Shown: piece by piece, positions 7,989-27,325 of the stretch
Position numbering within the stretch: position 1 is the first letter of the stretch
Layout: every line of letters starts with the position of its first letter
Source: Verrucomicrobiota bacterium
GTDB lineage: Bacteria; Verrucomicrobiota; Verrucomicrobiia; Verrucomicrobiales; V1-33
DNA length: 35,439 nt
NCBI GenBank assembly: GCA_031414455.1
Contig: JANNVM010000606.1
Span: forward strand, 1-35,439
Direction of reading: 5' to 3'
Translations under genes and position numbers: made by a program
Notes under the pieces: generated by a model
What the model saw: only the letters and a program-made list of their open reading frames with translations
What the model was told of the DNA's origin: nothing
The model's database searches: none

Positions 7989-9428
7989 TCACGCCAGCAG
8001 TTCCGTCACCACGCGCGCGGACTGGCCGTCGGTTAGAGTGACGTCGAGACCGTTGCGTTTGTAGATGAGCTTCGCGTGATCAAGCCCAAAGAGGTGCAGA
8101 AGCGTGGCGTGCCAGTCGTAGTGGTGAACCACATCCTTGACGGCCTTGTGCCCCCACTCGTCAGTCTCGCCGTGGGCATAACCGCCTTTGAAGCCGCCGC
8201 CCGCCATCCACGTCGAGAACCCGTGCGTGTTGTGATCGCGGCCCCATTTGTCTGGACCACCGTCGTTTTGCAGCACGGGCAGCCGACCCATTTCCCCGCC
8301 CCAGTGGACGACGGTGGAGTCAAGAAGTCCGCGCTGTTTGAGGTCCTTCACGAGCGCCGCGCACGGCTGATCCACCTCCCGGCAGCGGTTGGGGAGTTCG
8401 CCGCGGAGGGAGCCGTGATGATCCCATGACTGGCCCTGATTGAGCACCTGGACGAAGCGCACGCCGCGCTCCACCAGCCGCCGGGCAATGAGACACCGCG
8501 TGGCATAGTCGCGCGTGTGGTCCTGATCGAGGCCATACATCTTTTTAATGTGCTCCGGCTCGCCGCTGAGATCGAAGGCCTCTTTCGCGGCGTGCTGCAT
8601 TCGTGCGGCGAGGGCATAACTTTGAATGCGGGCATCGAGATCGCTGTCGCCGGCATGACGGGTGAGATGGTTTTTGTTCAGCACGTTGAGCAGTTCAAGC
8701 TGGCGCTGCTGCCCGGATCCTGACAATTGCGGCGGGGCATCCAGATTGAGAATGTGAGGCTCGCCGGGACGCACCATGGTGCCCTGATACACTGCCGGCA
8801 GCCAGCCGGCCGTCCAGTTTTCGTTGTTCATCAGCGGCTGCCCGTGCGGACTCGTCAGCGCCAAATAGGCCGGCAGATCCTGCGTCTCACTGCCGAGACC
8901 ATAACTCAGCCATGAACCCAGCGTCGGCCGCCCGGGCGTGACGCGACCGCTGTGCAGCGCATACATGGACTGTCCGTGATTGTTCACGCCCGTCTGCATC
9001 GACCGGATGAGCGCGATGTCGTCCACGATCTCCGAAAGGTGGGGAAGCAGTTCGCTGATCTCCATGCCGCACTGCCCGCGCGGCGCGAACTTCCATGGAC
9101 TGCCGAACACCTTGCTGCTCGCCTCCGCGGCATTGTCGTAACGGATTTCTCCGGGGAATTTCTGCAGGTGGTACTTCGTCAGTTGCGGCTTCGGATCGAA
9201 CAAATCCATCTGGCTCGGCCCGCCGATCATGAAGAGCGAGATCATCGCCTTTGCCTGCCCGCGCCGCGGCGACGGCTTCTTTGTCAGGTCAAATGTCTCC
9301 GCCCCCGTGAGCGGTTTGGTCGGTGCCGCGAGCAGTCCGTCGCGGCTCAGCAGCCACGGCAGCGCCAGCGAGCCAAGGCTGAAGGCATTGGCCCGGAGGA
9401 AATGGCGGCGGGAGAGAAGTGATTGCAT
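7989..9428 (-). CDS. DUF1501 domain protein (Tat-exported, PVC-type)
   Basis: SRRHFL Tat motif; LFMIGGPSQMDLFDPKP; CLIARRLVERGVRFVQ; WDHH; GEMGRLP; GRDHN. Confidence 0.93.
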   Translation of the reverse strand: MQSLLSRRHFLRANAFSLGSLALPWLLSRDGLLAAPTKPLTGAETFDLTKKPSPRRGQAKAMISLFMIGGPSQMDLFDPKPQLTKYHLQKFPGEIRYDNAAEASSKVFGSPWKFAPRGQCGMEISELLPHLSEIVDDIALIRSMQTGVNNHGQSMYALHSGRVTPGRPTLGSWLSYGLGSETQDLPAYLALTSPHGQPLMNNENWTAGWLPAVYQGTMVRPGEPHILNLDAPPQLSGSGQQRQLELLNVLNKNHLTRHAGDSDLDARIQSYALAARMQHAAKEAFDLSGEPEHIKKMYGLDQDHTRDYATRCLIARRLVERGVRFVQVLNQGQSWDHHGSLRGELPNRCREVDQPCAALVKDLKQRGLLDSTVVHWGGEMGRLPVLQNDGGPDKWGRDHNTHGFSTWMAGGGFKGGYAHGETDEWGHKAVKDVVHHYDWHATLLHLFGLDHAKLIYKRNGLDVTLTDGQSARVVTELLA

Positions 9429-14370: not shown

Positions 14371-16953
14371 CTATTCGATGTATAGAAAGCGGTTCGTGCT
14401 CAGCATCACCTGACACCATGCAGCGAGGGCGCCGGCGGCGGACTTGTCGCGGTCGAGGCCTTGTTTGGCGAGGTCGGTGCGCTGCTGGTGGAGGAACGCA
14501 AGGCTGCGGGCGGTTTCGAGGGCGTCCGGCGCAGTTCCAAAGAGGAGCGCCCATGCGCGGACAATCCTGACGGTGTCATTGGCAGGTGCTTCCCGCTGGA
14601 GCCGGCCGGCAAGCGCCTGAGATTGCTCGATGCTGAACGCATCGTTCATGAGCAGCAGTGACTGCGGGGCCACGGTGGTGACCGTGCGCGACGTGCAGTT
14701 GGGGTTCATCACCGGGAGATCGAAGGTGTCGAGCACCGTGAGCGGACGCGAGCGGCGGCTTTCGATGTAAAGGCTGCGCCTCTGCGCGCCCTCGGCGACC
14801 GACTCGATCTTATCCACCATGCCGTTGCCGGGATTGATGACCTCGCGTCCGGGGACGATGCGCCCTGTCGTCACATCGCGCGCCACGCTCACCGGTTCGC
14901 CCCCGATAACAGGAATCAGTTTGCCGGAGACTGCGAGCATGGCATCGCGGACGGACTCAGCGTCAAGTCGCTGCAGTTTCCAGCCCGGGTAAAGTCGCTC
15001 ACGCTCTGTGTTTACGTGTGGATCTCCCGCCTGACGCCAGGTGCGGCTGGTGAGCATGAGTTTGTGGAGCCGTTTCAATTGCCAGCCGTGCTCCACAAAG
15101 CCGGCAGCCAGCCAGTCGAGCAGATCCGGGTGTGTGGGCCGCTCCCCAAGCGCACCAAAGTCTCCCGGAGTCCTGACCAGCCCCCGCCCGAAATGATGGA
15201 GCCAGAAACGGTTTACGAGCACGCGGGCGGTGAGCGGATTTTGTTTTGCAGTCAGCCACTGCGCGAAGGCGAGTCGCCTTCCGCTCGTCGGCAGATCAGG
15301 TTTCGGACTTGTCAGGGCCACCGGCTCGCCCGCCGTGGACAGCACCTCGAACACCCCGGGTGAAATCTTCTCACGCGGCTGCCCGTGGTCGCCGCGGCTG
15401 AAGAGAAACGTGTCCGGCACGGCATTGGCAAACTCCGTCGCCGCCATCACAAAATGCTCCTTCGGTCTCGTGGCACGGTGCGCATTGGCTTTGGCTTCCA
15501 TCTCCACGCGCTTGTTGTTCGCCGGCGGATCAAACAGCAGCAGGATGCCCTCCTGCTTCGGCACGTTGGCTTCGACGTATTTCTTGAGCAGCTCCGTCTG
15601 CTCCGGCGTGCGTTTACCTTCCTCCGTTTCCCGCGCGGTCTTCACGGCGGCGCGGTCAGCTTCCGGAACTTTGGCGAGGCGTTCCGCGAAGATTTCCTCC
15701 AGCCGCTTTAGAGCGAATGCCACCCGTTCGGCATCCATTTGCTTTGCCTCGGCTTCGATCTTCTCCGCCTGTTTGCGTTCCTCGTCGTTGTAGAGCGAAA
15801 AGAGACGGTTGCCGGGCGGCTGCCAGTTTTTCCAGTTATAGACGGGCTCGAAAACCGCACGCAGGCGGTGGTAGTCCTGATGGGAAACGGGATCGTAACG
15901 GTGGTCGTGGCACTGCGCGCAGCCAACGGTCAGGCCCATGAGGGAGGTGGAGACGATCTTGATGGTCTCGGCCATGACCTGATTTCTTGCGAGGCTGGCA
16001 TCCGCCACACTGCCGCCGGTGGGGTCCGGGGCCATGCGGAGGAATCCGGTGGCCGCCAGGCGATCGGCGGCACCGGGTTCGAGGATACGCTTCTTCACGT
16101 CGTCGTGCGCCGCGCCGAGCAGTTCATCTCCGGCCAGTTGTTCCGTAATAAACCGGTCCCACGGCAGGTCCTCATTGTGCGCCCTGACAACATAGTCGCG
16201 GTAATGCCATGCATACGGCCGCGGCAGGTCCTCTTCGTGCCCTTCGGAGTCCGCATAGCCCGCCGCGTCGAGCCAGTGGCGGCCCCAGCGCTCGCCATAA
16301 TGCGGCGAGGCCAGCAGGCGGTCCACCTGTTTCTCAAAAGCATCGGCCGCGGGGTCGTTGACAAACGCCGCCACCTCTTCCGGCGACGGGGGCAAACCTG
16401 TTAGATCGAACGACAGCCGCCGCAGCAGCGTGACCCTGTCGGCCTCCGGCTGGAAATCAAGCCCCGCCGCCCGCAGCGGCACGGCGATGAAAGCATCCAC
16501 CGGATTCGTCTCGCCATCCGGCACAGCGGGCTTCCCGATCGGGCGGAAGCTCCAGAAGTTTCGTTCCTCATCGGTGATATAGACGGCGGGAATCGTCTCC
16601 GGCTCGTCGCGCAGGGTCGGCGCGCCCGCGGCAATCCATTGCTCCAGCAGGGCGACTTCTGACGGGGCCAGTTTCTTCTCGCCCTTCGGCATTTTGCCGC
16701 TGCGAACCAGTTGCACCATGTGGCTCGCCTCCGCATTCCCCGGCACCATCACCGGACCGTCATCGGTCTTGTGCAGCATGAACCGCCGCAGCCGAAAATC
16801 CACGCCGCCCTCCTTTTTCCCGCCTTCACCATGGCAGTGGAAACAATGCGCCTTCAGCAACGGCCGCACGTCCCTCTCAAACACGGGTGCCCCCTGCCCT
16901 GCCGCGCAGAGCTGAGAAAGGCAGAGCGCCGTGAGAAGCCGGGATCGTGTCAT
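14371..16953 (-). CDS. Planctomycete cytochrome c + DUF1549 + DUF1553 (PSD1) protein
   Basis: CFHCH and CAQCHDH; YGERWGRHWLDAAGYADS; NPLTARVLVNRFW; PTHPDLLDWLA; APQSLLLMN. Start 16953 preferred over 16974. Confidence 0.95.
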   Translation of the reverse strand: MTRSRLLTALCLSQLCAAGQGAPVFERDVRPLLKAHCFHCHGEGGKKEGGVDFRLRRFMLHKTDDGPVMVPGNAEASHMVQLVRSGKMPKGEKKLAPSEVALLEQWIAAGAPTLRDEPETIPAVYITDEERNFWSFRPIGKPAVPDGETNPVDAFIAVPLRAAGLDFQPEADRVTLLRRLSFDLTGLPPSPEEVAAFVNDPAADAFEKQVDRLLASPHYGERWGRHWLDAAGYADSEGHEEDLPRPYAWHYRDYVVRAHNEDLPWDRFITEQLAGDELLGAAHDDVKKRILEPGAADRLAATGFLRMAPDPTGGSVADASLARNQVMAETIKIVSTSLMGLTVGCAQCHDHRYDPVSHQDYHRLRAVFEPVYNWKNWQPPGNRLFSLYNDEERKQAEKIEAEAKQMDAERVAFALKRLEEIFAERLAKVPEADRAAVKTARETEEGKRTPEQTELLKKYVEANVPKQEGILLLFDPPANNKRVEMEAKANAHRATRPKEHFVMAATEFANAVPDTFLFSRGDHGQPREKISPGVFEVLSTAGEPVALTSPKPDLPTSGRRLAFAQWLTAKQNPLTARVLVNRFWLHHFGRGLVRTPGDFGALGERPTHPDLLDWLAAGFVEHGWQLKRLHKLMLTSRTWRQAGDPHVNTERERLYPGWKLQRLDAESVRDAMLAVSGKLIPVIGGEPVSVARDVTTGRIVPGREVINPGNGMVDKIESVAEGAQRRSLYIESRRSRPLTVLDTFDLPVMNPNCTSRTVTTVAPQSLLLMNDAFSIEQSQALAGRLQREAPANDTVRIVRAWALLFGTAPDALETARSLAFLHQQRTDLAKQGLDRDKSAAGALAAWCQVMLSTNRFLYIE

Positions 16954-17091
16954 GCGCCCATGACGCGACCGCACCCGGAATTCTTACACCCGGGAGCGGC
17001 CAATCGGTTCCGCCGCAAATCGTCCATCAATGGGCGGTGGCGCTGCCCGGCAGGCAACCTCTCAACTCCGGCCTCAGTCTGAAGCGCCGGA

Positions 17092-19832: not shown

Positions 19833-20399
19833 ATGGCCGGTGAAAACCAGGAAGCCGATGATGTCACCCAAATCCTCCAGGCCATCCGGCTGGGGGATTT
19901 GAGGGCCAGTGGTGAATTGATGCCCGCCATCCACGCGCAGCTCCGCCGCATCGCTGCCGTGAAAATGGCCGGCGAGCACCCCGGCCACACGCTCCAACCG
20001 ACCGCGCTCGTCCACGAGGCATGGCTGCGGCTGGGGGACGGATCGTTTGAAAACCGCGCGCACTTCTTCGGTGCCGCCGCCGAAGCCATGCGCCGCATTC
20101 TTGTGGACCGCGCGCGCCGCAAACAGCGCGCCAAACACGGTGGCGGCCAGGATCACCTCAATCTCGACAGTCTCGAAATCGCCGCCCCCGAAGACAGCGA
20201 CGAACTGCTCGCCGTCCATGACGCCCTGGACCGCCTCGCCGCCCACGACGCCCGCAAGGCCGAACTGGTGAAGCTTCGCTACTTCGCCGGCCTCTCCTTC
20301 GAAGAATGCGCCGCCCTGCTGGGCGTTTCCGTCCCCACCGCCAAACGCGACTCGTCCTTCGCCCGCGCATGGCTGCACAGCGCCATCCGGAATGACTGA
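19833..20399 (+). CDS. ECF sigma factor, TIGR02999/ECF43-like (kinase-associated)
   Basis: HTLQPTALVHEAWLRL, RAHFFGAAAEAMRRILVDRARRK, VKLRYFAGLS, ARAWL. Confidence 0.93.
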   Translation: MAGENQEADDVTQILQAIRLGDLRASGELMPAIHAQLRRIAAVKMAGEHPGHTLQPTALVHEAWLRLGDGSFENRAHFFGAAAEAMRRILVDRARRKQRAKHGGGQDHLNLDSLEIAAPEDSDELLAVHDALDRLAAHDARKAELVKLRYFAGLSFEECAALLGVSVPTAKRDSSFARAWLHSAIRND

Positions 20400-20687
20400 T
20401 ACAAGGCAGGCACTAATGAGTCGCGGTCCGGCAACAGCCAAACGCGAGACATCCGCCAGCGGCGGCCCCGCGCGCCCTTCCCGCCATCCCCGGACCTCCG
20501 CGACGGACTCGATCATCGTTTCGCCCTCATAGTCGATCGTGCCCCGATAGCCTTCCAGCATCAGTTCGGCGAGCGCGTGGGCATCCGAAGTCCGCGGTGC
20601 TCTCAAATCAAGGCCAGGGGATGCCGCAGCCGGATCGCGCGCATCGAAGCCCGTCAAATCGAGGAAGTATTCGTGGCGTTGGGTCAT
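20400..20687 (-). pseudogene. 5' fragment of a GNAT-like acetyltransferase, truncated at the sigma gene stop
   Basis: AGGAGG-N7-ATG at 20687; LRAPRTSDAHALAELMLEGYRGTIDYEGE...SRLAVAGPRLISACLVS, after which the frame continues only as antisense of the sigma gene; no acetyl-CoA-binding motif. Confidence 0.6.
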
Positions 20688-20755
20688 CAAGATTCCTCCT
20701 ACAGGGAATGGCGGTCTGCGGCCACCATGTTCCACAGGAGTTACCACTGCACGAC

Positions 20756-20877
20756 GTAACGCAGTCCGTCCCGGCTGCCGTTCCGCAGGGCCTCCGGCCT
20801 GCATATTGGGCACGCCGCGCAGCCAATTCGGCAGGCGGGACGCACTGCGGAACGGCAGGCCAGAGGCGCTGCGTTAC
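20756..20877. repeat. REP/REPIN-like imperfect inverted repeat
   Basis: Arms 20756-20802 and 20831-20877 share gtaacgcag, ctgccgttccgcag and cctgc in inverted orientation; each arm contains two small gcag...ctgc palindromes. Confidence 0.75.
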
Positions 20878-20927
20878 CTCGCAGCGCTGTCCCGTCCCAC
20901 ATCATGCTTCACATTTCCTGGCTCTGC

Positions 20928-20958
20928 GTGATACGATCCGCCCCGGATTCTCGCATGA
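20928..20958 (+). promoter_or_regulatory. Putative ECF promoter, copy 1 (upstream of the kinase)
   Basis: GTGATAC-N15-CTCGCATGA, same spacing as the copies at 24818 and 25719. Confidence 0.65.
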
Positions 20959-20982
20959 TGGGAGACGACCATCCACCAGCCC

Positions 20983-23900
20983 ATGAACTCCGAAGAAGAA
21001 CTCTTTGAGCACGCCGCCGCCCTGCCGCAGGCGGAACGCGCGGCGTATCTCGACTCCGCCTGCGCCGGCCAGCCGGAACTGCGCGGGCGCATCGATTCGC
21101 TGCTGCGTTCGCATGAGGTCACCGGATTCATGGAAGGCCACACCGTGGTGCTGCCGGGGCCGCCGGCGGAACAGACAGGCGAGCGCATCGAGCGCTACCG
21201 GCTGCTCCAGCAAATCGGTGAGGGCGGATTCGGCACCGTCTGGATGGCGGAACAGGTCGAGCCGGTGACCCGCCGCGTGGCACTCAAGATCATCAAGGCC
21301 GGCATGGACACGAAGGAAGTCATCGCCCGCTTCGAAGCCGAACGCCAGGCGCTGGCGATGATGGATCATCCCAACATCGCGCGGGTCTTCGACGCCGGCG
21401 CGACCGACAAGGGCCGGCCGTTCTTCGTCATGGAACTGGTGAAGGGCATTCCCATCACGCGCTTCTGCGACGAGCAGCAGTTCACCATGCGCCAGCGGCT
21501 GGAGTTGTTTGGGGACGTCTGCTCCGCCATCAATCACGCCCACCAGAAAGGCATCATCCACCGCGACATCAAGCCGTCCAATGTCATGGTCACCCTCAAC
21601 GCCGACCGGCCCGTGGTGAAGGTCATTGATTTCGGCATCGCCAAAGCCACCCAGGGCAAACTCACCGACCGCACGGTCTTCACGCGCTTCGAGCAGTTCC
21701 TCGGCACGCCCGCCTACATGAGCCCGGAACAGGCTGCGATCAGCGAACTGGACATAGACACCCGCAGCGACATCTACGCCCTCGGCGTTCTGCTCTACGA
21801 ACTGCTCACCGGAACGCCGCCCTTCGATGCCAATACCCTCGTCTCCGCCGGCTACGAGGAAATGCGCCGCATCATCCGCGAAGTCGAGCCGCCCAAACCA
21901 AGCACCTGTCTCAAACAGTTGCTCACAGCATCCACAGCCGACGGAGCCTCTGCCAAATCTCAAATCTTAAATCATAAATCTCAAATCCCTGCTGACCTCG
22001 ACTGGATCGTGATGAAGGCCCTCGAAAAGGACCGCACCCGCCGCTACGAGACGGCGAACGGCCTCGCCTTGGATATTCAGCGGTTCCTTTCGGACGAGCC
22101 GGTGAGAGCGGGGCCGCCCAATGCCGCCTACAAGCTCAGGAAGTTCGCCCGGCGCAACAGGGTGGTCCTGCGCGTGACCGCAGGGATTGCGGCGGTGCTC
22201 ATCGCCGCAACGGTTGTCAGCGCCTGGCAGGCGGTGCGCGCAGGGCGCGCCGAGGCAAAGGCGATACAGAAGGCGCTCGACGAGTCGGTGGCCCGTGCGG
22301 AAGCCGAAACGGCACGCCGGGAAGCCGAGAACATTAAGAACTTCCTCCTTGGCGTCTTTGCGAGTCCCGATCCGGCGCGGCAGGGGGCCAGCATCACTGT
22401 CGCCGAATCCCTCACCCTCGCGCTTCAGAAAATGAGAAGCGAACTCGCTGGCCAACCGGAACAGCGGTTTGTTCTGCAAAGTTCCATTGCATGGACTTTG
22501 CATACCCTTGGCTACACGAATTTTGTCATTCCCTACGCTGAAGAGACGCGCGATTACTTCGTTGCGGCTCGTCCTCCGGAACACCTCGACGCGCTGAGGG
22601 CGAAGCATAGCGTGGCGATTTTCTATATTGTGGCAGGGCGGACGGAGGAGGCAACGGCTCTTTTCGAAGAGTTATACTCGATTGAACAACGGACGCTGCC
22701 GCCCGAGCATTCTGAGTATCTGGAGTTGCTCCAGACGATGGCCAACCTGTCGGTGTGTTACCAGGCATTGAACCGGAAACCTGAGGCGCTCGCCGTGCAT
22801 AGAAAAGCCATGGATATCTGTCGTTCAAAATACCCTGACGAGCACTTCGCGACAGTCAGAGCCAAGGAAGGCCTGGCTACATCGTACTATTCGACGGAGC
22901 AATGGGACGAGGCGCTGAAGCTGCGGAATGAAGTGCTGGCACACCGCCGCAAGACCTTCAAAGCCGGGAATCCCGGTCCATTGCTGGTTGCGCTGGAAAA
23001 CACAGCCCAGTCGCTCAACACCGCCGGAAGAAAGGATGAGGCTTCCGCGTTAAGGACTGAGGCGGAAAAGGTTCGGCAGTCCCCGCCGGAAGCTACTGCT
23101 CACAATCTTTTGGGAATGGATCCCAAAAAAGCGAAGCAGCGGATAACAGCAGCGTTGGCCGCACGGCGATTCGATCAAGCGATTGAGACATGCCGTGAAC
23201 TCGTCAAACTACAATCCGGGCAGGCCTTCCCCGCGGATGATGATGCTGAGCCGGAAGCGTGGCTGGCGAATGCTCTCCTTCTTCGTGCCGCAGAGGCCCG
23301 CAAGGGTAGGGAGGATAACGACGCTGCCACGCTCTCCCGCGAGGCGGATGAACTGATTCGGGGGCTGCTCACCTGCAAAACCTCCCTGAATGTAGCTGGA
23401 GCCAGGGTGGATCTTTTTTGCCGTTACGGTCACTGGCAGGAAGCCGCGGCGTTTTGCCGTGCCTTTTGCGAGCAGTTTCCGGGTAACCCGTGGCCGGCTT
23501 TCCGGCTCGGCCCTCTCCTGATTGAAACAGGTGAAACCGCGGCCTTTGAAACGCTCTGTCGGAAAATCCTGCATCCGATTTCCTCATCGAAATTGGAGAA
23601 CCTGAAACCATTGTTGGATTCGCTGGTGGCGGAATTCAAGGGACACGGACCGGACGTGCTGGCGAAAACCGTCTGTCTCCGGCCGGTAAATGAGGCAGAC
23701 CTTCATTGGGTTGTCGTGCTCTCCGAGAAGGCGGTGACGCTGCAAAATGAGCGTTATCGGAACTGGTATGTCATGACCCGGGGCCTCGTAGCCTGCCGGG
23801 CGGGAAAATACTCCGATGCGATTGCGTCGGTGGAACCGGTTCTCCCCCACCTGCCGCCCGTGGCACAAGCGACCAGCCAGGCAATACTGGCCATGGCCCG

Positions 23901-24075
23901 ACACGGAATGAAAGAGGCAGACGCCGCCCACACGGCATGGGAACTAGGCGACCAATTGCTCAAAGCGAACTGGTTCTCGGAGACCCGCATCGCCCTCGAC
24001 GGTAATCCCCACGACGGGCTGATCGCGCACATCCTTTTGCGGGAAGCGAAGGCCCTGCTCGAAGCCGGCAAATGA
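20983..24075 (+). CDS. Hanks-type Ser/Thr kinase with TM helix and C-terminal TPR region
   Basis: GEGGFGTV, VALK, HRDIKPSN, DFG, GTPAYMSPE; TM after RKFARRNR; TPR-like helices. Confidence 0.95.
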   Translation: MNSEEELFEHAAALPQAERAAYLDSACAGQPELRGRIDSLLRSHEVTGFMEGHTVVLPGPPAEQTGERIERYRLLQQIGEGGFGTVWMAEQVEPVTRRVALKIIKAGMDTKEVIARFEAERQALAMMDHPNIARVFDAGATDKGRPFFVMELVKGIPITRFCDEQQFTMRQRLELFGDVCSAINHAHQKGIIHRDIKPSNVMVTLNADRPVVKVIDFGIAKATQGKLTDRTVFTRFEQFLGTPAYMSPEQAAISELDIDTRSDIYALGVLLYELLTGTPPFDANTLVSAGYEEMRRIIREVEPPKPSTCLKQLLTASTADGASAKSQILNHKSQIPADLDWIVMKALEKDRTRRYETANGLALDIQRFLSDEPVRAGPPNAAYKLRKFARRNRVVLRVTAGIAAVLIAATVVSAWQAVRAGRAEAKAIQKALDESVARAEAETARREAENIKNFLLGVFASPDPARQGASITVAESLTLALQKMRSELAGQPEQRFVLQSSIAWTLHTLGYTNFVIPYAEETRDYFVAARPPEHLDALRAKHSVAIFYIVAGRTEEATALFEELYSIEQRTLPPEHSEYLELLQTMANLSVCYQALNRKPEALAVHRKAMDICRSKYPDEHFATVRAKEGLATSYYSTEQWDEALKLRNEVLAHRRKTFKAGNPGPLLVALENTAQSLNTAGRKDEASALRTEAEKVRQSPPEATAHNLLGMDPKKAKQRITAALAARRFDQAIETCRELVKLQSGQAFPADDDAEPEAWLANALLLRAAEARKGREDNDAATLSREADELIRGLLTCKTSLNVAGARVDLFCRYGHWQEAAAFCRAFCEQFPGNPWPAFRLGPLLIETGETAAFETLCRKILHPISSSKLENLKPLLDSLVAEFKGHGPDVLAKTVCLRPVNEADLHWVVVLSEKAVTLQNERYRNWYVMTRGLVACRAGKYSDAIASVEPVLPHLPPVAQATSQAILAMARHGMKEADAAHTAWELGDQLLKANWFSETRIALDGNPHDGLIAHILLREAKALLEAGK
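21954..21988 (+). repeat. 5x YAAATCH heptamer inside the kinase CDS
   Basis: caaatct-caaatct-taaatca-taaatct-caaatcc, translated KSQILNHKSQI. Confidence 0.85.
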
Positions 24076-24617
24076 CTGCCGCCATCCACACAGCCCGCCT
24101 TGATTTGAATCCCATGACGCCACCGGTCATCCGGGCGCTTCTGGCGGGGGATCATGGGGAGGCGGGGCGATTGCTGAGTGTTTGTTGGCCGGCGGATTGC
24201 GAGGTTCACCGTGATGCTCTGGAGATGCGTCTGGGGCAGTTGGAGGCGGACCCAGGGCTGCAACCCTGGTTGTTGCGGGCGATGGTGCTGCGGGAGGAGG
24301 GGGCCGTCGTCGGTCACATTGGATTTCACGCGGCACCGGGGCATGAGTGCCTTGCGGAACTGGCGCCGGGCGGGGTGGAGTTTGGCTACGGGGTAATGGA
24401 ATCCTATCGCCGGCGCGGTTTGGCGACGGAGGCGATCGAGGCCCTGATGCGCTGGGCGCGGGAGGTGCATGGCGTGGAGCGATTCGTGGTGAGCATCAGT
24501 CCGGAGAACGGGCCGTCGCTGGCGCTGGCGGCGAAGCTGGGGTTCCGGAAGATTGGATCGCACATGGATGAATTCGACGGGCCGGAGGATATTTTTGAGA
24601 GGGTGTTGGGAGATTGA
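24072..24617 (+). CDS. GNAT acetyltransferase, RimJ/RimL-like
   Basis: IHTARLDL, VGHIGFH, VEFGYGV...YRRRGLATEA, NGPSLALAAKLGF; ATGA overlap with the kinase stop. Confidence 0.9.
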   Translation: MTAAIHTARLDLNPMTPPVIRALLAGDHGEAGRLLSVCWPADCEVHRDALEMRLGQLEADPGLQPWLLRAMVLREEGAVVGHIGFHAAPGHECLAELAPGGVEFGYGVMESYRRRGLATEAIEALMRWAREVHGVERFVVSISPENGPSLALAAKLGFRKIGSHMDEFDGPEDIFERVLGD

Positions 24618-24663
24618 ACAGGAGAGAACGGAGGGCTTGAGGTATAATTCAGTGAAGATGCAA

Positions 24664-24760
24664 GGTGCCCGGTGCCCGGTGCTCGGTGCTCGGTGCTCGG
24701 TGCCCGGTGCCCGGTGGTCGGCAGCTGCCTTCTGACACCGCGAACCGAAAACCGAGAACC
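24664..24760. repeat. Heptamer array 8x GGTGCYC-like with an inverted partner array
   Basis: 24664-24719 ggtgccc x2, ggtgctc x3, ggtgccc x2, ggtggtc; 24733-24760 reverse-complements to ggttctc-ggttttc-ggttcgc-ggtgtca. Confidence 0.85.
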
Positions 24761-24817
24761 AGCCCCCGGCTCGCCTCTGCTTCCTCCGCGGCCTCCTGTG
24801 AAAAATATCTTCCCCCG

Positions 24818-24848
24818 GTGATCCGATTGGCGGCCGGAACTCGCATGA
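24818..24848 (+). promoter_or_regulatory. Putative ECF promoter, copy 2
   Basis: GTGATCC-N15-CTCGCATGA, preceded by the A/T tract aaaaatatctt. Confidence 0.65.
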
Positions 24849-24856
24849 GGGGGCGC

Positions 24857-25135
24857 ATGAATCCTCCTGATGCGCATACATTGGAAGCCAACCTCTGCGA
24901 AGGCGGAGTGCTGCTGCATTACCGGCTGGGGGTGGCGGACAGCATCCGGCTGTTGTGCCGGCGCGGGCCGGAGCGGGAGTATGCGATGCTGGCGGAGGAT
25001 GAACCGGCGCCGGTGACAGACTGCCGCCCCAAGCTCGACCCCGACCGTCCCGAGACGCGCTACTACCGCGCCATCCTGAGCTACGCCAATGCCATGTGTC
25101 AGTTCACGAACGAGATCGTGGTGACGGTGCCGTGA
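24857..25135 (+). CDS. Small hypothetical protein (92 aa), probably a beta-sandwich/FN3-like domain
   Basis: Protein-like beta-rich sequence GGVLLHY...IRLLCRRG...DCRPKL...PETRYYRAIL...EIVVTVP; directly follows promoter copy 2. Start 24857 or 24845. Confidence 0.55.
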   Translation: MNPPDAHTLEANLCEGGVLLHYRLGVADSIRLLCRRGPEREYAMLAEDEPAPVTDCRPKLDPDRPETRYYRAILSYANAMCQFTNEIVVTVP

Positions 25136-25137
25136 GT

Positions 25138-25696
25138 GGAAAGGAGTGTCCGCAGATTACGCAGATTTTCGCAGAGGCTAATTCCAATGAGCGTTCAAGA
25201 TGAACCGCATCACGCAGCCCAACGGGCTGAAATGAGAAAGCCCGGGGCCGCGCCCTGAGCCTTATACGGAAGTCGCCGTGACCGCCGAGAGTGGCGCGGA
25301 GCCTTTATAACCAGGTGGGGCGAGGCTGTGCCCGAGCCGACTTCCTGCGGGCCGGCGCCTTAGCGCCGGGCGGCGCGGAGCGGGTGTTGGCACCAGTGGA
25401 AGCGCCCGGGGCGAGAGCCATGACGCGGCGCTTTGCCCGCAGAGAAAGCGAAATGGGGTGGCTCTCGCCCTGCAAGTTCTGCGTGACGACCGCGAGGCTC
25501 CGCGCCCCCTCCGCCCACGGAAATCAGGGCTCGGGCGCAGCCTCGCCCCACCTGGTTTTGATGGGCCTCCGGCCCGGAATCGTCGCTCACGGACTTTCGT
25601 ATAAGGCTCAGGGCGATGCCCCGGGCTCTCTCATGGTGCCCCTTTGGGGCACGGGCACTGCGGAAATCTGCGTAATCTGCGGACTCAATCCTTTCC
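25138..25696. repeat. Composite nested inverted-repeat element (~560 nt)
   Basis: Arm pairs: 25138-25174/25658-25696; 25232-25288/25580-25634; 25309-25338/25528-25557 (29/30); 25372-25381/25497-25506 (10/10); 25409-25420/25459-25470 (12/12); 25429-25434/25445-25450 (6/6). Confidence 0.9.
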
Positions 25697-25718
25697 CGCA
25701 AAATTATTTTTCACCCGC

Positions 25719-25749
25719 ATGATCCTCCGCGGCGCGGAAACTCGCATGA
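25719..25749 (+). promoter_or_regulatory. Putative ECF promoter, copy 3
   Basis: ATGATCC-N15-CTCGCATGA, preceded by the A/T tract aaaattattttt. Confidence 0.65.
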
Positions 25750-25801
25750 GGGAGCGGACCGGGCATTCTTCCGGCTCCGCAAACAAACACAACACTACCA
25801 A

Positions 25802-27157
25802 ATGAAAACACCTCAAGCCCATCGCGGGTTCCGCGCCACCGAGCGCCGGACCTGTTCTCCAAAGAAATCACTGCTGCTCACTGCCGCGGTGCTGCTGTTG
25901 CCGGCAGCGGACCTCACGGCGCAGGCCACCACGTTCGACGTGAACCTGCAGTCCGAGCAGTTCAACCTCTACACCGATCCCTACAACGGGAACGAGATCA
26001 AAGTCGGAGGCTTCTCCGGCCTGTATCCGGTGCCCGGCAAGCCGGGGTCCTTCTATGCGATCACCGACCGCGGACCGACGCCGGACTTTAAGGGCAGCGA
26101 CGGCAAAATCCTCAAGACCTGGGCTGTCCCCGGATTCGGGCCGCACCTGATCACGGTGCGTCTGATGCCCAACGGCACCGCAAAAATCGATGAGGTCAAG
26201 CCGCTCAAACGCCCCAACGGCGGCCACATCACCGGCCTGCCAACCACCAAACCGGCGACTGACATTCCCTACGACTTCAATTTGAATGTCCTGCCTTTTG
26301 ATGAGGACTCCCTCGACGCCGAGGGCATCACGATTGACCCGTGGGGCAACTTCTGGGTCTGCGAGGAATACAAGCCGAGCGTGGCCATGATCGCACCTAA
26401 CGGAAAGGTGCAGATGCGCCTGGTGCCGGCCGGCACGGTGGTGGGCACGGAGGAGGTGCCGACCTATCCGGTGCTGCCTGCAGTCCTGTCCAAACGCCGC
26501 AGCAATCGCGGATTTGAAGGCATCACGGTGTCGGCAGACGGCATCCTCTACGCCATTGTGCAGCGGCCGCTGAACAATCCGAACCGCGCCGCGGCTGACG
26601 CCAATGGCAATGTCCGGCTGGTGGCGATTGATCTCAACACGCTGGGCGGGGCTCCCGTGATCCGGCAGTATCTCTATCAGGTGCCGCCTATCATTCCGAT
26701 CACCCAGCCCCTCAGCATGACGTTAAGTGACCTGTTCTCCACGGGGCCGGGCAGGATGCTGGTGCCGGAACGCGCGACCGACAAACTGTTCGAGATCGAT
26801 GTGACCCATGCCACTGACATCACTCCGTTTGAAGATGGCACAGGGAAGCTGAAAGCTCCGCTCTCCGCCACCAAGACGACGATTGAGCAACTGACTCCCG
26901 CCGACCTCACTCTGCTCGGCATCGTGCCGGTGAGTAAAACAGTCGTGATTGATTCGCTCACGGCGATCAGTCCGCTCCTTGAGAAGGTCGAGGGGGTCTG
27001 CAAGATCGGTAACACGATCTACCTGACGTACGACAACGACTTCAATGTCGCGGAGGCCGGCAGCACTCCTGCCAATCCCAATCCCAACGGGCCATTCGTC
27101 CAACTTGAATTGCTTGGCGCGAATTACCCGAAGATTTGGGCCGTGCAGGTGCCGTGA
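25802..27157 (+). CDS. Secreted esterase-like activity of phytase family protein (beta-propeller)
   Basis: Signal peptide; GGFSGL, AITDRGP, LDAEGI, FWVCEEYKP, RRSNRGFEGI, EKVEG, DNDF. Confidence 0.88.
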   Translation: MKTPQAHRGFRATERRTCSPKKSLLLTAAVLLLPAADLTAQATTFDVNLQSEQFNLYTDPYNGNEIKVGGFSGLYPVPGKPGSFYAITDRGPTPDFKGSDGKILKTWAVPGFGPHLITVRLMPNGTAKIDEVKPLKRPNGGHITGLPTTKPATDIPYDFNLNVLPFDEDSLDAEGITIDPWGNFWVCEEYKPSVAMIAPNGKVQMRLVPAGTVVGTEEVPTYPVLPAVLSKRRSNRGFEGITVSADGILYAIVQRPLNNPNRAAADANGNVRLVAIDLNTLGGAPVIRQYLYQVPPIIPITQPLSMTLSDLFSTGPGRMLVPERATDKLFEIDVTHATDITPFEDGTGKLKAPLSATKTTIEQLTPADLTLLGIVPVSKTVVIDSLTAISPLLEKVEGVCKIGNTIYLTYDNDFNVAEAGSTPANPNPNGPFVQLELLGANYPKIWAVQVP

Positions 27158-27210: not shown

Positions 27211-27325
27211 CCTGGGGAGGAGCGCGGATTCCCAATGCAGCCAGTTCCAGCGGCGCGGCGCGGAAGTCATCCGTTTCGTTTCTGATTACGCCGCGAGAGT
27301 GCGTGGGGGAGTTCCTCTCTCCCCG

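Follow-up and report, generated by a model that had tools for sequence, protein, structure and literature searches.

Three predicted ECF-type promoters beside a kinase-linked sigma factor gene in a verrucomicrobial genome

A gene cluster of an uncultured verrucomicrobium present in freshwater sediments combines the gene for an extracytoplasmic function (ECF) sigma factor with that for a Hanks-type kinase and with three copies of one bipartite box. The cluster lies on contig JANNVM010000606.1 (C606) of assembly GCA_031414455.1 (8,182,819 bases in 1344 contigs, referred to as G000), and the whole stretch of 35,439 nucleotides (nt) that was analysed is called the window. All on the + strand, it consists of the 188-amino acid (aa) sigma factor gene (19833-20399; PF07638, TIGR02999), a gene for a 1030-aa Hanks-type Ser/Thr kinase (20983-24075; Pkinase, 6.2e-46, with TPR_12 and TPR_10 matches), a gene for a 181-aa GNAT acetyltransferase (24072-24617; PF13302, 3.9e-19) whose start overlaps the kinase stop codon (ATGA), an open reading frame (ORF) for a 92-aa protein (24857-25135) and a gene for a 451-aa phytase-like protein (25802-27157; PF13449, 1.4e-38). 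The box, RTGATNC-N15-CTCGCATGA, is present as GTGATAC-N15-CTCGCATGA at 20928-20958 (P1), 24 nt before the kinase ATG (20983), as GTGATCC-N15-CTCGCATGA at 24818-24848 (P2), 8 nt before the ATG of the 92-aa gene (24857), and as ATGATCC-N15-CTCGCATGA at 25719-25749 (P3), 52 nt before the phytase-like ATG (25802). Judging from sequence and its conservation, these boxes are probably ECF-type promoters that would be read by the adjacent sigma factor after activation by the kinase, with positive feedback on the kinase gene.

Three copies of the box on the + strand had been announced by the original prediction, and they were recovered at exactly the positions given above. Each is also intergenic and just before a gene, as had been claimed, and two of them carry upstream A/T tracts (gaaaaatatctt at the second site and caaaattattttt at the third). 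Nor is the box scattered, since a scan of the whole assembly on both strands returned the full pattern at these three places only; none of 100 dinucleotide-preserving shuffles of the window contained a match. The 9-mer CTCGCATGA by itself occurs 39 times genome-wide, including 4 times on the window contig. The likeness between the second and third sites is limited to 23 nt, and these sites are thus not part of a larger duplication. A consensus scan also placed a sigma-70 match, TTCACA-18-TACGAT, over the first box; a sigma-70 reading was rejected by eye, as the TGATCC boxes do not have the A and T that an extended -10 element requires.

Among the 37 other genomes of the family, five have a phytase-like orthologue (66-75% identity); designated G008, G012, G014, G015 and G043, they define the related loci. 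In the form TGAT[AC]C-N16-[TC]CGCAT, the box is kept before the same genes in these five genomes: it precedes the phytase-like gene in all five, the kinase gene in three of the four loci that hold one (G012, with one additional nt in the spacer, G043 and G008), and the 92-aa gene in both related loci, i.e., that of G012 and a relocated, inverted orthologue in G008, where TGATAC-N17-CGCATGA stands 8 nt before the ATG. Both half-boxes are kept in the distant genomes G015 and G014, with a 16-nt spacer that is unrelated. In all six loci, the predicted phytase-like promoter also has an A/T-rich stretch, 8-20 nt ahead of TGAT. When a weight matrix was made from nine sites of other genomes, to the exclusion of those of the window, the three window sites came first, second and third genome-wide (47.5, 42.0 and 31.7 bits), with scores that are partly due to the shared descent of spacers in close relatives; a paralogous kinase junction comes next (30.8 bits). 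TGATMC-N16-TCGCAT occurs two to seven times per genome in the five relatives (0 with the pattern read backwards), and the sites located within the orthologous locus amount to 2/2 in G015, 3/4 in G043, 2/5 in G008 and 2/7 in G012. The second box of G015 precedes a gene for a secreted leucine-rich-repeat protein, followed by the sigma gene, while the third box of G043 comes after a second kinase-GNAT pair and before the gene of a Dabb-domain protein. Being bipartite, fixed in spacing, oriented towards the gene, and conserved while the spacer varies, the box has the traits of an ECF-type promoter.

Two dispersed palindromic repeats are present in the same intergenic regions, and the boxes could accordingly be imagined as fragments of such repeats, or as chance matches. 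They lie outside both elements, however, and the orthologous loci keep the boxes and are free of the repeats. The empty shuffles, the restriction of the pattern to three sites genome-wide and the first three ranks obtained with the relatives' matrix likewise contradict this explanation, which has next to no chance of being right. The smaller repeat, a palindromic element of ~130 nt at 20750-20880 with blastn matches on 33 contigs, is contained in the unusually long gap (583 nt) that separates the sigma gene from the kinase gene, a gap that measures ~170 nt in G012 and ~75 nt in G043. The rest of this gap (20400-20750) has no copy elsewhere; a 96-aa antisense ORF within it (20400-20687, - strand) was considered as a GNAT remnant and dropped, as it has no Pfam match. 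The larger element, a nested palindrome of 537 nt at 25148-25684, between the 92-aa gene and P3, has arms of 27, 57 and 37 nt that are 82-96% complementary, and related copies on dozens of other contigs. Orthologous loci have ~40-400 nt at this place and no such element, and the palindrome looks like an insertion resembling a miniature inverted-repeat transposable element.

The sigma factor matches TIGR02999 (Sig-70_X6) at 202.7 bits, for a cut-off of 126.15, and PF07638 at 177.8 bits, for a cut-off of 21.1. Its architecture is limited to sigma2 and sigma4, with PF07638 covering residues 9-186 and Sigma70_r4_2 residues 140-181. The DAED motif forms the acidic patch through which ECF sigmas contact the beta-prime subunit. 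Here, it is replaced in region 2.2 by the uncharged QPTA, with its Thr, which agrees with the earlier assignment of this protein to the kinase-linked type; the proposed phospho-acceptor is also where it had been placed, the ACC codon at 20001-20003 encoding T57 in ...TLQPTALVHEAW.... QPTA is invariant in four sigma orthologues, and the position of T57 is occupied by Thr in 37 and by Ser in 1 of 41 paralogue matches in the genome. According to the available text of the respective articles, ECF43 sigmas have uncharged residues at the DAED place, with QTTA as consensus (PMC13147305), and EcfP has STTA, the Thr of which is phosphorylated by the neighbouring Hanks kinase (PMC8999054, PMC8103513). 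A literature search found no publication linking TIGR02999 or PF07638 to ECF43; the region 2.2 motif suggests that the sigma works like ECF43, and the group name itself is not assigned here. No anti-sigma domain was detected in the seven window proteins scanned, among which the family-less 92-aa protein could possibly have such a role.

The kinase is made of a conserved N-terminal region of ~65 aa, a kinase domain (residues 72-356) and a long, TPR-rich C-terminal part, and a single hydrophobic span (~395-417), read by eye from the translation, follows the kinase domain. Its Hanks-type motifs are intact, GEGGFG, VALK, HRDIKPSN and DFG being invariant in five orthologues. Sigma and kinase genes share one locus in G012, G043, G008 and G015, and in both G012 and G043 the GNAT gene likewise follows the kinase gene, with the second such pair of G043 already mentioned. 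A complex between kinase residues 1-370 and the sigma factor was predicted with a score of 0.36, versus 0.00 for the best of three controls, with runs agreeing in at least 33% of contacts and a partner pLDDT of at least 70 (custom alignments). This result is classed as 'weak support'. Among reference pairs, 58 of 80 solved complexes attain the mark, as do 2 of 110 mismatched pairs, and scores of 0.60 or below belong to only 7 of the 80 solved complexes, plus both passing mismatches.

From these elements, a mechanism can be proposed, in which we infer promoter identity, the reading sigma and its phosphorylation, as well as what is sensed and in which direction control runs. The predicted promoters would consist of a -35 element TGAT[AC]C, a free spacer of 16 nt and a -10 region TCGCAT(GA), often with an UP-like A/T tract. 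Devoid of the acidic DAED patch, the QPTA-bearing sigma presumably cannot bind core RNA polymerase until T57 is phosphorylated by the neighbouring membrane-anchored kinase. The latter would have its N-terminal region and kinase domain in the cytoplasm, cross the membrane once and sense some cue with its TPR-rich outer part. Once active, the sigma would promote transcription of the kinase-GNAT operon, in a positive feedback, as well as synthesis of the 92-aa protein, expected to be cytoplasmic and made from a nearly leaderless mRNA, and of the phytase-like protein, which is probably secreted: its N-terminus resembles a signal peptide by eye. Of note, the phytase-like protein has no relative in the PDB by sequence and no NCBIfam match. 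The sigma gene, which has no such promoter, would presumably be transcribed at a basal level.

The design is not unique in this genome, where 34 matches to TIGR02999 exceed the cut-off, along with dozens of close kinase paralogues. The corresponding number of sigma matches is 23 in G014, 18 in G012 and 0-7 in the other 38 relatives, and there is none over the cut-off in 14 control genomes. The sites and the sigma type put forward by the original prediction are upheld, and the scans of the genome and of the orthologues that it named came out in its favour, but its description of the locus as an undescribed signalling system was too strong, as the locus is one of at least 34 paralogues built on a known design, an ECF sigma with a Hanks kinase. 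When relaxed, the motif picks out paralogous sigma-kinase junctions on contigs C502, C684 and C319. Of 35 kinase paralogues, 23 have CGCA[TC] among the preceding 140 nt, versus 32% of random windows, and two related 6-mers are in excess upstream of kinase paralogues (CGCATG, 10 versus 2.0 expected; TCGCAT, 6 versus 0.94), even though the conserved 3' ends of sigma genes partly dominated this analysis. In the form TG....-N16/17-CGCA[TC], the box is found in the 200 nt that follow the sigma gene in 15 of 37 cases in G000 and in 8 of 20 in G014, as compared to 6.8% of random windows, and in the 200 nt that precede it in only 2 of 29 cases. Its place is therefore between sigma and kinase genes. 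In line with this, the sigma gene is not preceded by a box in the window (200 nt searched) or in four orthologues and, judging from these positions, the sigma gene is not autoregulated through the predicted promoter.

The paralogues also fall into classes in which the -35 element goes with the sequence of the sigma4.2 helix: TGATAC with AKRDW, TGGCCC with AKRTW, TGGCGG or TGAGGG with [AV]ERLW, TGGCGT with DRHW and TGTCC with QRYW, in G000 and again in G014; in the DRHW class, the -10 element is CGCC. This correspondence is suggestive as regards promoter recognition, and it is not proof of it, since the modules are inherited as units. The genome-wide association of the box with TIGR02999 sigma genes bears on the idea that the boxes are operators of a DNA-binding regulator other than a sigma factor. 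Conserved sites at a fixed position before genes, with some G+C-rich dyads seen by eye in the spacers, would be compatible with such operators. Yet the conserved halves form neither a palindrome nor a direct repeat, and the box always points towards the gene. The dyads of the spacer are not retained across orthologues, the loci hold no conserved regulator gene and the box tracks the sigma genes, all of which makes the operator explanation improbable.

Several observations weigh against the adjacent sigma reading the boxes as promoters. First, Ser174 of this sigma (TCG, 20352-20354) lies in the sigma4.2 helix at a position where the four orthologues all have Trp (TGG), as does every paralogue whose alignment reaches that column; this difference of one base (20353) may mean that this copy of the sigma is impaired, or it may be an assembly error. 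Second, the AKRD(W) helix recurs, together with the TGATAC/TCGCAT box, in five or six paralogous sigmas, so that sequence does not settle which sigma is the reader. Third, the genome-wide excess of matches at the right spacing is modest, with 74 matches at N17 as against 50-63 at spacings of the same codon phase. Moreover, sigma, box and kinase are co-inherited, and the helix/-35 match and the paralogue counts are thus not independent observations. The G015 kinase orthologue has no box in the upstream region checked. Lastly, in four members of the 92-aa family the ATG comes only 8-12 nt after CGCAT, which under the promoter reading requires a leaderless or near-leaderless mRNA; this short gap is the weakest spot of that reading, and a promoter at this place would likewise not fit the annotations of some gene callers, in which the 92-aa protein begins with the box ATG (P0002 and P0004).

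The first two of these points lead to an alternative in which the boxes are still ECF-type promoters, read mainly or also by paralogous TIGR02999 sigmas, with a regulon shared among modules. The sigmas encoded on C502 (87% identical), C684, C319 and C532 have the ..TAKRDW.. helix, while the adjacent sigma has Ser in place of the conserved Trp174. The kinase junctions of C502, C684 and C319 display TGATAC (TGAGAC on C532), followed by N16 and [TG]CGCA, and C1246 and C502 carry more sites of the same type, two on the former and a second one on the latter. On the other hand, sites in relatives cluster next to the orthologous sigma, the combination of CTCGCATGA with TGATNC is confined to this locus, and the paralogous boxes diverge just after the -10 region (TCGCATAT, TCGCATGT and TCGCAGGT). 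Sharing of this kind appears unlikely, albeit with a real chance of being correct, and recognition by the adjacent sigma is still preferred here.

The 92-aa protein has no match in Pfam and NCBIfam and no signal peptide by eye. It falls into a family of 6 clusters among 5.8 billion proteins, found at 21 places in 12 of the 301 genomes of the order, all within one family, and 51 of its 92 columns are invariant in an alignment of seven sequences. A TGA...-N16/17-CGCAT box precedes 6 of the 19 members that could be placed. A seventh member, on contig C361 of G014, is located between sigma and kinase genes, with a box ~85 nt upstream, and the order on contig C428 is sigma, box, 92-aa paralogue and GNAT paralogue. 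A search for related loci with the 92-aa alignment retrieved a single locus, that of G012. The AlphaFold2 model made from the seven sequences is unusable (mean pLDDT 53.0), and the protein atlas gave only a lead from this protein to small Fn3-like clusters (0.95 and 0.94). Most of the remaining members have another box, TCCGTCAC, 60-90 nt upstream of the gene. In distant homologues (L024-L028, L035-L037, L039 and L040), it is conserved as TCCGTCAC(A) and followed ~12-16 nt later by TTTGC; this box may be a promoter of another alternative sigma. In the window, the real 92-aa gene is covered by a spurious 156-aa ORF (24665-25135), which owes its greater length to a run of GGTGCYCG octamers (24659-24721) between the GNAT gene and P2.

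Since an ATG follows CGC in 11 of 12 aligned orthologous sites, the box might instead act at the level of RNA or translation. The ATG in CGCATGA would then open a short ORF upstream of the gene or be the start of the 92-aa protein; alternatively, the region would form a leader structure. In the window and in G043, a 19-codon ORF from the box ATG was seen by eye to end on the phytase-like start codon, and a fold of 25711-25805 predicts a hairpin in the phytase-like leader (z = -2.99). Nevertheless, the ATG is not required, the G015 site having ATA and paralogous boxes CGCAGG, CGCACT or CGCCTG, and the frame opened by the ATG of the kinase site ends after ~17 codons, out of frame with the kinase. 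In addition, shuffled sequences fold as well as the regions around two of the three boxes (z = -0.63 and -0.86), the whole window has no Rfam match, and the TGAT half is left without explanation. A role in RNA or translation is consequently very improbable. Regarding the leader itself, the predicted hairpin is stable and spans 25752-25780 (GAGCGGACCGG...CCGGCUCCGC), and CCGG-rich hairpins were noticed by eye in the phytase-like leaders of G043 and G012.

Beyond the window, other sigma/kinase modules also have, on a single contig, two or more copies of their own variant of the box: C502 (at 14099 and 18263), C1246 (5144 and 3171) and C1098 (several GTGAGCC...CGCTCATG). From sequence, members of this sigma/kinase family generally seem to control small regulons close by. 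More tentatively, the genome may hold a family of at least 34 parallel cassettes of the order sigma, promoter and kinase, a possibility that we would not yet call likely. In these cassettes, the sigma would not be autoregulated, feedback would act on the sensor, the x-R-x-W residues of sigma4.2 would code promoter choice, and the 92-aa and GNAT proteins would be accessory parts. The last two, which occur in the window, on C428, on C361 of G014 and in G043, might for example provide a feedback brake that takes the place of an anti-sigma factor.

The closest known systems are those of ECF43, described here as far as the available text of the cited articles goes. As in the window, EcfP of Vibrio parahaemolyticus is a DAED-less ECF sigma whose gene adjoins that of a Hanks kinase, PknT, with a Thr at the same place of region 2.2 (STTA in EcfP, QPTA here); EcfP has no anti-sigma factor (PMC8999054, PMC8103513), and no anti-sigma domain was detected in the window proteins scanned. 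The present locus differs in its host, a member of the Verrucomicrobiota with 34 sigma genes of this type, in the TPR-rich outer part and ~65-aa N-terminal region of the kinase, and in its outputs. The EcfK/PknS pair of Xanthomonas citri is likewise composed of a transmembrane Hanks kinase and an ECF sigma controlling neighbouring genes (PMC13147305, PMC7777525), and EcfK too has a Thr in region 2.2, T51 in QATE (PMC13147305). However, EcfK controls a type VI secretion cluster, as opposed to the three small transcription units predicted here, and has an acidic residue beside the Thr, which QPTA does not (PMC13147305). The T51A variant of EcfK is still functional, and phosphosites in the linker matter (PMC13147305). 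The groups ECF59, ECF61, ECF62, ECF217, ECF267 and ECF283, from Planctomycetes and others, also have a neighbouring Ser/Thr kinase gene and usually no anti-sigma (PMC7826278, PMC8999054), but, in the accessible part of PMC8999054, kinase-linked groups other than ECF43 mostly keep a DAED-like motif, in contrast to the sigma of the window.

The locus is thus, most likely, a further, well-defined example of the known kinase-activated ECF sigma type rather than an undescribed system. The box resembles classical ECF promoters, such as that of Bacillus subtilis sigma-W, of the TGAAAC-N16-CGTA type, in its bipartite structure, its spacer of ~16-17 nt, the AC or CC at the end of its -35 element and its short -10 element containing CG. 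It differs by its -10 element, CGCAT rather than CGTA or CGTC, and by its location after the sigma gene and before the kinase. The ECF promoter search described in the available text of PMC7826278 assumes autoregulation, and such a search would probably miss a box that lies after the sigma gene. No published promoter motif was found for ECF43 or for verrucomicrobial sigma/kinase pairs, in a comparison covering neither the supplementary motifs of PMC7826278 nor the EcfP promoter; more generally, promoters of this group may escape searches based on autoregulation.

To our knowledge, only two phosphorylation-activated sigma factors have been studied, one in Vibrio and one in Xanthomonas, and we are not aware that the recognition targets of such sigmas, or the way in which many parallel copies are insulated from one another, are known. 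In this context, the locus offers a testable set in an uncultured verrucomicrobium, composed of a sigma with its candidate Thr, a kinase, three predicted promoters and output genes. The helix-matched -35 classes and the box between sigma and kinase genes suggest how dozens of switches could coexist, and the family pattern could supply orthogonal sigma/promoter pairs.

As to the surroundings, an ABC exporter is encoded upstream of the sigma gene, and the cluster is followed by a convergent xseA gene. A terminator-like hairpin with a T run (27305-27323, + strand; consensus match only) lies between the phytase-like gene and xseA. Further upstream in the window are the genes of a DUF1501 protein (7989-9428, - strand) and of a PSCyt1/PSCyt2/PSD1 (DUF1549/DUF1553) protein (14371-16974, - strand), a pair that is typical of Planctomycetes and Verrucomicrobia.

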